Source: an uncultured Candidatus Saccharibacteria bacterium
GTDB lineage: Bacteria > Patescibacteriota > Saccharimonadia > Saccharimonadales > UBA4665
NCBI GenBank assembly: GCA_964426605.1
Contig: CAYRQK010000001.1
Span: forward strand, 16,419-80,418
DNA length: 64,000 nt
Direction: 5' to 3'
This document shows, piece by piece, positions 8,778 to 48,555 of the stretch; the first letter of the stretch is position 1; the number at the start of each line of letters is the position of its first letter. The position numbers and the translations under genes were made by a program. The notes beneath the pieces were generated by a model. The model was not told the origin of the DNA and did not search any database. It was given only the letters and a program-made list of their open reading frames with translations.

Positions 8778-8796
8778 CTAGAGGTCCGACCTCTAG
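8778..8796. repeat. REP-like palindrome copy (CTAGAGGTC-C-GACCTCTAG)
   Basis: Perfect 9+1+9 palindrome. It has the same core as the palindromes flanking the RAYT gene at 47850 and 48537. Confidence 0.8.
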
Positions 8797-14001: not shown

Positions 14002-15807
14002 ATGAACCAAGACCATATTCGGAACTTTTGTATAGTGGCACATATCGACCATGGCAAATCAACGCTGGCTGACCGTTTGCTGGAGCTAACTGGCACGGTG
14101 CAGAAACGTGATATGAAGGCGCAGTTGCTCGACCGCATGGATCTAGAGCGCGAAAAGGGTATTACTATCAAGCTGGCCCCCGTCCGTATGCAGTACAAAG
14201 ACTACGAGCTGAACCTGATCGACACCCCCGGACACGTCGATTTTAGTTATGAGGTATCTCGGAGCCTTGAGGCCTGCGAGGGGGCTTTGCTCGTAGTAGA
14301 TGCCAGTCAGGGCATCCAGGCCCAGACACTGGCCAACGTGTATCTGGCAATGGCCGCCAATCTGGCAATCATCCCCGTTTTGAACAAAATAGACCTACCG
14401 GCTGCCGATGTTGAACGCGTGGGTGCTGAAATAGTCAGCTTGTTGGGTTGCCAATTCGAGGACATTATACAGATATCGGCCAAAACTGGCTTAGGTGTTG
14501 AAACGGTGCTGGAGCGCATCGTCACCGATGTCCCATCGCCATCTAGAGGTCCGACCTCTAACGGCGAAAGTGACCTGGATGCAACGGATACGAGGGCGTT
14601 AATTTTTGATAGCTACTACGATGATTATCGCGGTGTAATTTTGTATGTACGGGTGTTTGAGGGTGAAATTGGCAAGGGTGTTCACATTCGCATGATGGCC
14701 ACCGGCGCCAACGGCATTGCACTAGAGGTCGGTGCGCTCAGGCCTCAAATGTCACCCGGCAAAGGTTTGGCCGCCGGCGAGATTGGCTACATCGTCACCA
14801 ACCTCAAAACCACTCGTGATGCCAAGGTGGGTGACACGGTTACGCTCACAGCTCAGCCTGCCACCCAAATGTTGCCTGGCTACAGGGATGTACGACCGTT
14901 TGTGTATGCGGGCTTCTTCCCGGAGAGCAATGAATTCTATCAGGAGTTGAAGGACGCTGTTGAGAAGCTTTCTTTGAGCGACAGTGCCTTGCAATTCGAG
15001 CCGGAGAATTCGCCGGTGCTAGGCTTTGGTGTGCGCATTGGTTTCTTGGGTTTACTGCATATGGATATTGTGCGCGAGCGACTAGAGCGCGAGTACAACC
15101 TGGAGTTAGTGGTCACTAACCCCTCAACCGACTACCAAGTGACGATGACGAATGGGGAAGAGATTGATATCAAGAGTGCTGCCGACCTGCCCGATCCGGC
15201 ACACATCGAGGAGATTCATGAGCCGTGGATCAAGGGCGAAATTGTTGTCCCGGATAGGTATGTTGGTGCGGTCATTCAGCTCATTAATAGCAAGCGCGGC
15301 TTGCACAAGAATCTTAGCTATGTCGATACGCAAGCACTCGTCAGCTTCGAGGCGCCGCTGGCCAATTTACTAACGGATTTTTACGATCAACTCAAAAGTA
15401 TTACGAGTGGCTACGGTAGCTTCAACTACGAGCTTGATGATTACCGGGCGGAAGATTTGGTGCGGGTAGATTTCTACGTGGCTGGCGAAATAGTCGGTGC
15501 GCTCAGTGTCATGGCTCACCGCTCGGAGGCGCAGAGCCTAGGTCGTACCACAGTTGAGAAACTCAAGGAAGTCATACCACGGCAGAATTTCCAGGTGGCA
15601 TTGCAGGCAGCCATTGGCGGTAAGTTTATCGCTCGCGAAGACTTGAGTGCCTACCGCAAAGACGTTACAACTGGTCTGTACGGTGGTGATGTGTCGCGCA
15701 AGAAAAAGGTCTTGGCCAAACAGGCTAAAGGCAAAAAACGCATGAAGCGCTTTGGTAAGGTTGATATTCCAGCCGAAGCCTTCACCATCATGCTCAAACG
15801 AGATTAG
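14002..15807 (+). CDS. lepA: translation elongation factor 4 (LepA)
   Basis: IRNFCIVAHIDHGKSTLADRLL, DTPGHVDF and NKIDL motifs, plus the conserved LepA C-terminal domain. TATAAT (13988-13993) lies 8 nt upstream of the ATG. Confidence 0.98.
   Translation: MNQDHIRNFCIVAHIDHGKSTLADRLLELTGTVQKRDMKAQLLDRMDLEREKGITIKLAPVRMQYKDYELNLIDTPGHVDFSYEVSRSLEACEGALLVVDASQGIQAQTLANVYLAMAANLAIIPVLNKIDLPAADVERVGAEIVSLLGCQFEDIIQISAKTGLGVETVLERIVTDVPSPSRGPTSNGESDLDATDTRALIFDSYYDDYRGVILYVRVFEGEIGKGVHIRMMATGANGIALEVGALRPQMSPGKGLAAGEIGYIVTNLKTTRDAKVGDTVTLTAQPATQMLPGYRDVRPFVYAGFFPESNEFYQELKDAVEKLSLSDSALQFEPENSPVLGFGVRIGFLGLLHMDIVRERLEREYNLELVVTNPSTDYQVTMTNGEEIDIKSAADLPDPAHIEEIHEPWIKGEIVVPDRYVGAVIQLINSKRGLHKNLSYVDTQALVSFEAPLANLLTDFYDQLKSITSGYGSFNYELDDYRAEDLVRVDFYVAGEIVGALSVMAHRSEAQSLGRTTVEKLKEVIPRQNFQVALQAAIGGKFIAREDLSAYRKDVTTGLYGGDVSRKKKVLAKQAKGKKRMKRFGKVDIPAEAFTIMLKRD
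14542..14560. repeat. REP-like palindrome embedded in the lepA coding sequence
   Basis: TCTAGAGGTCCGACCTCTA is read in frame as S-R-G-P-T-S. It contains a 17-nt perfect palindrome at 14544-14560. Confidence 0.75.
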
Positions 15808-47849: not shown

Positions 47850-47876
47850 CTATCTAGAGGTCGGACCTCTAGATAG
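47850..47876. repeat. REP-like palindrome upstream of the RAYT gene
   Basis: CTATCTAGAGGTC-G-GACCTCTAGATAG, with perfect 13-nt arms. Confidence 0.85.
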
Positions 47877-47904: not shown

Positions 47905-48528
47905 ATGCCCAGTCGTAACGTGCGTAAAACAGATGTAGCCGAGAGTTATTATCACGTGTATGCTCGCGGCATTAGCCGTCAGCGGATCTTTCGAGAACCA
48001 GCCGATTTTGTGAAATTCTTGCGCTTGTTCGGGCGTTATCTGTCGCTACGGGAGACCAAGAGTGCCGCCGGCGTATCGTTCCCTAATTATTACAATAAAC
48101 TCGAGCTGACCTGTTTTTGTTTGATGCCCAATCACTTTCATTTGCTGATTTACCAGCGCCAACAGGGCGCAATGACAGAGTTTATGCGAGGCCTACTGAC
48201 GAGCTATAGTATGTATTTCAATAAGAAGTACAAGCGCAGCGGACCACTGTTTGAGTCGCGCTACAAGGCATCGCTGATATCTGACGACACTTATTTGGAG
48301 CACATCACGCGCTATATTCACCTCAATCCGCGGCTGTGGCGGAACTATGAGTACTCCAGTCTGCCGTATTATTTGCATCAAATTTCGGATGAGTGGGTTC
48401 GGCCCGAACGTATCATTTCACAGTTTCCGACACCCGCCGAGTATCTACAATTTGTCCAAGACTACGTGCAGCGTAAGGAGATGTTGGATATCTTAAAACA
48501 TGAGTTAGCAGACTCCGCAACGAGCTAA
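47905..48528 (+). CDS. REP-associated tyrosine transposase (RAYT; IS200/IS605-like HUH Y1 transposase)
   Basis: YYHVYARGISRQRIF N-terminus, HUH motif MPNHFHLLIY, and catalytic Tyr region ITRYIHLNP. Palindromes flank the gene on both sides. The ATG at 47905 lies 6 nt after TACACT. Confidence 0.85.
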   Translation: MPSRNVRKTDVAESYYHVYARGISRQRIFREPADFVKFLRLFGRYLSLRETKSAAGVSFPNYYNKLELTCFCLMPNHFHLLIYQRQQGAMTEFMRGLLTSYSMYFNKKYKRSGPLFESRYKASLISDDTYLEHITRYIHLNPRLWRNYEYSSLPYYLHQISDEWVRPERIISQFPTPAEYLQFVQDYVQRKEMLDILKHELADSATS

Positions 48529-48536
48529 AATGTCAT

Positions 48537-48555
48537 CTAGAGGTCGGACCTCTAG
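48537..48555. repeat. REP-like palindrome downstream of the RAYT gene
   Basis: CTAGAGGTC-G-GACCTCTAG, 8 nt after the RAYT stop, followed by GTAGC. Confidence 0.85.

Follow-up and report, generated by a model that had tools for sequence, protein, structure and literature searches.

How does a short palindrome that recurs elsewhere in a small genome come to be translated as part of a conserved protein, and does its presence there reflect a single event or a continuing process? This question is raised by lepA, the gene for the GTPase LepA (EF4), in a stretch of 64,000 nucleotides of contig CAYRQK010000001.1 from an uncultured Candidatus Saccharibacteria bacterium, a member of the Candidate Phyla Radiation (CPR); this whole stretch is called the window below. 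An earlier note on the window described a palindrome resembling a repetitive extragenic palindromic (REP) element inside lepA and interpreted it as a mobile hairpin that had landed, exceptionally, in a coding sequence. Here, we show that the palindrome belongs to a dispersed family, two members of which bracket a gene resembling REP-associated tyrosine transposases (RAYTs), and that related elements recur in protein loops of several species. We consider it very probable that a REP of this genome, mobilised by the RAYT-like gene, joined the lepA linker in frame, as one instance of a recurrence that affects loops in several species.

To our knowledge, REP/RAYT systems have been considered strictly extragenic and a feature of larger proteobacterial genomes. 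How REPs move and how their copies stay uniform is still unsettled. These systems, also called 'REPtrons', are said to be represented by TnpA-REP/YafM of Escherichia coli with its REPs and bacterial interspersed mosaic elements (BIMEs), and by the REPINs (REP doublets) of Pseudomonas, in work reportedly by Nunvar in 2010, Bertels and Rainey in 2011, and Ton-Hoang in 2012. Enterobacterial palindromic units, reportedly described by Gilson and colleagues in J Mol Evol in 1987, are said to be extragenic and to show species-specific consensus differences that imply concerted evolution.

The genome under study (G000) is an assembly of 897 kb in 7 contigs with 51.7% G+C. All other G numbers denote related Saccharibacteria from a scan of GTDB species genomes, which places G000 in a Candidatus Saccharibacteria (TM7) lineage.

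The palindrome lies in frame in an intact lepA gene

The core of the palindrome in lepA is the 17-mer TAGAGGTCCGACCTCTA, which can be drawn as an 8+1+8 structure or, physically, as a 7-bp stem with a 3-nt loop, the latter with a DNA stability of -4.6 kcal/mol. The 601-residue open reading frame (ORF) that contains it matches the Pfam domains GTP_EFTU (residues 5-178), GTP_EFTU_D2 (211-281), EFG_C (405-483) and LepA_C (494-599). Positions 14530-14600 read GTC CCA TCG CCA TCT AGA GGT CCG ACC TCT AAC GGC GAA AGT GAC CTG GAT GCA ACG GAT ACG AGG GCG TTA, and the frame crosses the palindrome as S181 R182 G183 P184 T185 S186 (N187). The string, place and frame given in the earlier note (14542-14560, TCTAGAGGTCCGACCTCTA, translated S-R-G-P-T-S) are thus correct, except that its two leading bases, TC, lie outside the true palindrome. 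The same stretch is present unaltered in Logan contigs of four groundwater metagenome runs (contigs of 8-36 kb, with no joints), and the palindrome is therefore not an assembly artefact; the four runs belong to one study that may include the source sample. The contigs showed no population polymorphism at the site, although such contigs drop rare variants.

Table 1. Features of the window discussed in the text (window positions)
Feature	Position	Strand	Remarks
Intergenic REP copy	8779..8795	.	46 nt downstream of ftsH
lepA (EF4)	14002..15807	+	Intact, 601 aa; 78-89% identical to orthologues
Extended mRNA stem-loop around the REP	14525..14580	+	UCGCC pairs with GGCGA outside the core
LepA linker between G domain and domain II	14542..14589	+	Residues 181-196, SRGPTSNGESDLDATD, 16 aa
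REP core in lepA	14544..14560	.	TAGAGGTCCGACCTCTA, read (S)RGPTS(N), residues 181-187; equals 10 other genome copies
Putative 27-nt inserted block	14544..14570	+	T AGA GGT CCG ACC TCT AAC GGC GAA AG; edges uncertain by a few bases
REP copy 5' of the RAYT-like gene	47855..47871	.	Within the 27-nt perfect palindrome CTATCTAGAGGTCGGACCTCTAGATAG
Single-copy RAYT-like Y1 (HUH) transposase gene	47905..48528	+	207 aa; between a pilB-like (T2SSE) gene and recA
REP copy 3' of the RAYT-like gene	48538..48554	.	10 nt past the stop codon

The palindrome coincides with extra residues in an inter-domain linker

Measured from VPxP to TRALIFDS, the linker has 7 residues in 38 of 51 Saccharibacteria LepA orthologues and 16 in G000, and in HMMER alignments to Aquifex LepA (2ywe) and Thermus EF4 (5imq) a gap of 9 residues falls exactly at the REP site. 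The excess of nine residues over both reference proteins and the 38 relatives agrees with the 9-10 residues that the earlier note had estimated in comparison with E. coli LepA. Placement in a tolerant loop after the G domain, also proposed beforehand, is consistent with the position between Pfam domains, with linker lengths that range from 7 to 61 residues among relatives, and with an AlphaFold2 model in which residues 183-194 form a coil with a predicted local distance difference test (pLDDT) score below 50 between confident domains (the mean pLDDT of the model is only 64.5, the alignment being shallow). The REP site is thus predicted to be a disordered and tolerant inter-domain linker.

When the 27 nt at 14544-14570 are removed, the linker returns to 7 residues, SDLDATD, comparable to KPTDAAE in G041. 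On the bottom strand the block reads, after an adjoining GTCA, as CTTTCGCCGT followed by the hairpin, so that a tail of 10 nt precedes the hairpin of 17 nt, and GTCN occurs 14-15 nt from the hairpin in 6 of the 11 copies in the genome. These features suggest an inserted unit of 27 nt with the boundaries listed in Table 1. The earlier note had pointed out that REP-free orthologues with the same peptide and nucleotide segment would speak against an insertion; neither the extra peptide nor the palindrome is present in genomes without a RAYT homologue, and only one of them (G003, +5 residues) has a longer lepA linker at all. The longest linker, in G005, has 61 residues (+54) of low complexity (SSSSGRLRLSVAQGTSEEM...QQEQAAQ), in which no hairpin can be recognised; this genome has two RAYT homologues.

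Eleven identical hairpins form a dispersed family

The G000 genome contains 11 exact copies of the 17-mer and no copies with one or two mismatches; four exact copies fall in the window, where 0.03 would be expected by chance. The suggestion of a dispersed mobile repeat family is borne out by these 11 copies and by the two among them that bracket the RAYT-like gene. We assign a negligible probability to the view that the lepA segment is ancestral linker sequence with a chance palindrome that resembles a REP, or a chimera of assembly or binning. The small size of the element is all that speaks for it, whereas the lepA palindrome agrees with 10 other copies at 17 of 17 positions against that chance expectation, the segment is missing from 38 of the 51 orthologues, and four contig sets from one study hold the stretch unchanged.

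Complementarity of the flanks lengthens the 17-nt core to about 23 nt. A longer palindrome of 45 nt (GTCAAA...TTTGAC) was considered and rejected: ungapped flank complementarity is at background beyond 3-4 nt, and the outer arms in ksgA and lepA are ancestral coding sequence. The flanks have the consensus YATC on one side and GRT(A)G on the other, with CGTC in only one of the 11 copies. Close pairs number just two, 46 nt apart in rnhB and 152 nt apart in mnmA, and the members of each pair have the same orientation as judged by the central base. No direct repeats flanking the G000 copies and no structure beyond the single hairpin were found. A miniature inverted-repeat transposable element (MITE), which is defined by the terminal inverted repeats of a parent insertion sequence (IS) and by a target-site duplication, was rejected as a description because the copies have no flanking direct repeats and consist of a single hairpin only.

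The GC skew of G000 changes from positive to negative near 375 kb of contig C1 and from negative to positive near 115 kb of contig C2, the likely terminus and origin. The central G of the REP lies on the G-rich (leading) strand in 9 of the 11 copies, the exceptions being the copy downstream of ftsH and the one in lepA; with 11 copies, this replication-strand bias is suggestive only.

The hairpin is associated with a RAYT-like transposase gene

The 207-residue protein encoded between the two bracketing REPs matches the Pfam family Y1_Tnp (IS200-like) at 6.7e-11, and an alignment with ISDra2 TnpA pairs its HFH (HUH) motif with HVH and the Tyr of FESRY with SY. The gene is present once in the G000 genome. 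In G000, G001, G041 and G042, it shares a contig with lepA at a distance of 31-35 kb, which points to vertical inheritance. Orthologues with 66-80% identity occur in 16 species, and each has the hairpin of its own species on both sides. The arms differ between species (TAGAGG/CCTCTA, TATAGG/CCTATA, AATAGG/CCTATT, CAGAGG/CCTCTG, ACTAGG/CCTAGT, TATGGG/CCCATA), with an AGG-N5-CCT core kept in all variants. In an alignment of the 16 downstream copies, both sides have changed in 7 of 10 stem pairs, and 90.6% of cells are paired, compared with 76% in shuffles (0 of 500 shuffles reached the observed value); slid controls collapse. By these counts, the stems covary.

Because two copies of the 17-mer bracket a single-copy RAYT-like Y1 gene, the hallmark of such systems, the sequence identifies the G000 family and this gene as a probable REP/RAYT architecture. 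An IS200/IS605 insertion sequence, an autonomous element whose transposase and end hairpins move together and which usually occurs in several copies, was rejected as an alternative, since the gene is present once, with synteny between species, and dispersal is confined to the hairpin. In many species, the upstream REP is a half-hairpin only, which follows a conserved block, (C)GTTGTAATTTTGTG-AGG, about 20-40 nt before the RAYT start; G000 and G041 have a full hairpin at this place. The block (C)GTTGTAATTTTGTG may be a promoter or a left-end signal of the RAYT locus.

Most copies in the genome are translated

Seven of the 11 G000 copies lie in frame inside ORFs, and the identities of the REP-bearing genes are confirmed by Pfam. 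The REP is read as SRGPTS in lepA and as LEVGPLD in ksgA/rsmA, in tatD, in mnmA and in the C-terminal tail of a Wzy_C protein; rnhB has two copies, one read as LEVGPLD and the other, 46 nt on, as SRGRTSR. A unit of about 27 nt thus gives 7-9 residues in two different frames, LEVGPLD and SRG(P/R)TS, and orthologue alignments show extra residues at every coding REP site. The expectation that an in-frame REP is rare did not hold, given this majority of translated copies and the intragenic REPs already published (PMC3733652). Since ORFs make up about 87% of the G000 genome by a crude estimate, coding copies are not enriched.

Several of these loops have features of their own. The REP in the Wzy_C (O-antigen-ligase-like) protein (contig C2, 159720-159736) lies 60 residues beyond the Pfam domain, with 16 codons left before the stop, and may have extended the ORF instead of inserting into it. 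In tatD, the loop after HPHEA holds long in-frame insertions of 20-50 residues, rich in Pro, Ala and Ser, in several relatives (G012, G005, G053/G054), and that of G053 contains the REP-like CAGAGGACTGTCCTCTG. The mnmA genes of G039 (C2:284688-285878) and G025 (C3:28310-29446) give two-piece matches in one open frame (434 and 386 residues), which implies a large in-frame insertion near residues 128-140. G015, which belongs to a different genus and has three RAYT homologues, carries GAGGACGGACCT in the mnmA loop and CTAGAGGCTAGGCCTGTAG in the tatD loop that are occupied in G000, so that recurrence at these sites reaches beyond the G000 group.

REPs occupy corresponding loops in several species

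A five-gene tree (1631 columns, insert loops trimmed) resolves the nearest relatives as (((G000,G041),G042),G001), with support of 88/90, 84/82 and 94/92, and contains a second, well-supported clade, G049+(G055,(G053,G054)). A LepA-only tree agrees with the five-gene tree. The lepA linker is clean, at 7 residues, in G041 (the sister of G000), G042 and G044, and several lineages between G000 and G054 on the tree have clean linkers. The G001 linker carries TTAATAGGTCCGTCCTATAAT, to be compared with TTAATAGGTCCGTCCTATTAA, the REP that flanks the RAYT gene of that species and is present in seven exact copies. In G054 the linker holds a 20/20 copy of that species' own RAYT-downstream REP, in G055 a degenerate copy, and in G053 the post-hairpin tail without the hairpin; all six members of G050-G055, the clade of the LepA-only tree that contains G053-G055, have long linkers.

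A similar patchwork is found at three other genes. In ksgA, a REP is present in G000, G001, G053 and G054 and absent from G041, G042 and G044; these last three retain the ancestral RVPADN loop, and loss is therefore not the explanation. In mnmA, G000, G041 and G001 have a REP and G049 a remnant, with none in G042, G044 or G053-G055. In rnhB, G000 has its two copies and G041 and G044 have one at the same site, with none in G001 or G055; an initial view that the rnhB doublet was specific to G000, based on its absence from G001 and 28 others, was withdrawn on this account. The mnmA and rnhB copies of G041 equal the G041 REP exactly, and their one-base difference from the G000 copies is the difference between the two species consensuses (GGACGGACC vs GGTCGGACC). 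Three coding copies (lepA of G001, ksgA of G001 and rnhB of G044) differ from the consensus of their species, and do so solely where that consensus would make an in-frame TAA or TAG. Species-matched copies together with stop-avoiding departures indicate that the REP-bearing ORFs are really translated through the element.

These observations also bear on the age of the lepA insert, which the earlier note had regarded as a single, datable insertion. The site is empty in G041, G001, G054 and G055 each carry the REP variant of their own species, and synonymous sites are saturated even against the sister species (33% identity over 259 four-fold sites of lepA). The insert thus has a recurrent or concerted history and does not go back to a single dated event. 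In this respect, one could still propose that a single passive insertion occurred in the G000 lineage after the split from G041, with the copies in G001, G054 and G055 as coincidences in an indel-prone loop and with no maintenance, targeting or conversion. Clean 7-residue linkers in both the sister and the next-nearest species, G042, would fit such a history, as would a linker that gains residues even without REPs (the +5 of G003 and the +54 of G005) and the identity of all 11 G000 copies, as in a young burst. Nevertheless, we consider this proposal improbable: at about 10 copies per genome of 0.9-1.4 Mb, it is very unlikely that the same linker of about 30 nt was hit independently and at random in three or more additional species, recurrence is likewise seen at ksgA, mnmA and rnhB, the 12 nt past the hairpin match between G000 and G054 at 11 of 12 positions, and the copies depart from their species consensus only in the stop-avoiding manner described above.

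A recombination tract that brought a REP-bearing linker from the second clade into G000 was also considered and rejected, as windowed nucleotide identity has no local peak. The G054 linker resembles two units, TCTAT[hairpin...]GGTGAAAGT and then TCTATCCCGGGTGAAAAT, the second being a hairpin-less version of the first, and the G053 linker has a 9-nt direct repeat, CCAGGTGAA, on both sides of 24 nt. These repeats may be footprints of hairpin loss or duplication.

The hairpin could alternatively be a selected cis-element, retained for the benefit of the host because it slows ribosomes at a domain boundary for co-translational folding or serves as a site for a DNA- or RNA-binding protein, its likeness to a RAYT-associated repeat reflecting co-option. 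The hairpin does lie exactly at the boundary of the G domain and domain II, and the surrounding mRNA (Table 1) has an unusually stable predicted fold of -20.7 kcal/mol (z = -3.57; 0 of 200 shuffles as stable). Additionally, compensatory changes conserve the hairpin across species, and several species occupy the same loops. However, the sister species lacks it, as do 38 of 51 relatives whose LepA is equally conserved; the identical sequence occurs in intergenic DNA and on both sides of the transposase gene; and the host genes are functionally unrelated. Decay is also seen, as degenerate remnants in G055 and G049 and as the hairpin-less tail of G053. Taken together, we regard a selected cis-element as highly improbable, more so than a single passive insertion.

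Discussion

The explanation that we favour with high confidence is that a REP of G000, mobilised by the RAYT-like gene, joined the lepA linker in frame, and that such events recur in the loops of several species. According to this explanation, the REP would be a short hairpin that is recognised and mobilised as single-stranded DNA by the sole RAYT-like Y1/HUH transposase, a role suggested by the place of the gene between two copies of the hairpin. A unit of about 27 nt, made up of the 17-nt hairpin and some 10 nt, would have become part of the lepA reading frame at the flexible linker that joins the G domain to domain II; because 27 is divisible by three and the frame avoids the CTAG stop of the element, it would be translated as nine residues, approximately RGPTSNGES. 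With about 87% of the genome coding and little intergenic room, surviving copies would be found mostly in permissive protein loops. Uniformity within a species would then come either from repeated re-insertion at preferred sites or from short-patch conversion toward the RAYT-cognate sequence, and selection on the host ORF would veto REP changes that create stop codons. The presence of species-matched REPs in the lepA, ksgA, mnmA and rnhB loops argues for re-insertion or conversion rather than a passive fossil. That an active process, probably RAYT-dependent, keeps writing the current REP of each species into these four loops, with stop-creating bases blocked, so that coding copies would change together with the hairpin that the transposase recognises, is a more demanding proposal that we consider possible, though doubtful.

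Several observations weigh against insertion by a RAYT as we have outlined it. At other coding sites the net change in length is +6, +12 or about +24 nt, which is no fixed unit, and simple cut-and-paste insertion thus does not account for every case. The 12 nt after the lepA hairpin that G000 shares with G054 (GGC/GGT GAA AGT GAC) fit neither simple vertical descent nor independent insertion. An empty lepA allele, sought in metagenome contigs of the Joint Genome Institute (JGI) by both flanks with a variable gap, was not found; a 19-nt REP scan of the same contigs for closer relatives returned only three unrelated contigs with single hits. As regards the transposase, the sole and best NCBIfam match of the protein is REP_Tyr_transpos (NF047646) at 41.7 bits, under the cut-off of 80, and a sequence comparison with the PDB did not match E. 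coli TnpA-REP. Clear inverted doublets (REPINs) were not found among only 11 G000 copies, and the runs that hold the lepA stretch are DNA metagenomes only.

The G000 family shares several properties with known REP/RAYT systems, for which we followed the RAYT properties given in bioRxiv 10.1101/2021.07.10.451892. These include a dispersed short hairpin, a single-copy, vertically inherited Y1/HUH gene bracketed by the repeat, and joint change of repeat and gene between species. In contrast to such systems, the family has 11 copies rather than hundreds and mostly singlets rather than inverted doublets, its YATC flank has no GTAG or CGTC tag of the kind that defines super-families (Di Nocera 2013), its transposase scores below the family cut-off, and its host is a CPR bacterium. 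It is also not extragenic, with the majority of its copies inside ORFs. The enterobacterial units of 1987 mentioned above are said to be extragenic, whereas orthologous coding copies here follow the species consensus while avoiding stop codons.

REPs within genes have precedents. Di Nocera, De Gregorio and Rocco (2013; BMC Genomics 14:522, PMC3733652) reported REP units inside ORFs that are read through as extra residues, as well as single and double insertions within one gene, to which the two copies in rnhB of G000 correspond. Intragenic copies account for only a small part of the large families in that study and cluster in genes for replication and repair; in G000, the translated copies are the majority of a tiny family and lie in translation and RNA-modification genes (lepA, ksgA, mnmA) plus rnhB and tatD, and the same sites carry species-specific variants in several species. 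A second precedent is provided by the Rickettsia palindromic elements (RPEs; Ogata et al. 2000, 2002; reviewed in PMC10969869), selfish elements found in frame in many unrelated housekeeping genes of a small, reduced genome, at positions compatible with protein fold and function. The G000 REPs resemble them in being in frame in lepA, ksgA, tatD, mnmA, rnhB and the Wzy_C gene. RPEs are about 100-150 bp long, encode a conserved peptide of 30-50 residues, are not known to have a cognate transposase and are mostly fossil, whereas the G000 element is about 27 nt long, is tied to a RAYT-like gene and has copies that are kept identical. Since intragenic REPs and in-frame RPEs have both been published, the lepA insert adds one more case to a known phenomenon. 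It stands out for its CPR host, for a minimal family in which translated copies predominate, for loops that recur as REP sites from species to species, and for concerted change that avoids stop codons.

As far as LepA is concerned, the finding is unremarkable, as an insert of nine residues in a disordered linker is unlikely to alter function and is most likely neutral. The findings also carry a caution for annotation, in that short exact repeats within conserved CPR genes need not be assembly errors. Beyond this gene, G000 presents a minimal system, one gene and 11 hairpins in a 0.9-Mb CPR genome, in which most copies must be translated to survive, and the reading frame consequently acts as a built-in reporter of which hairpin bases can follow the species consensus, which are vetoed and which loops are re-used. 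If REPs are indeed actively rewritten, REP/RAYT systems would continually supply the essential proteins of ultra-small genomes with templated in-frame variation, and the mobility and homogenisation of REPs would be readable straight from protein-coding alignments.

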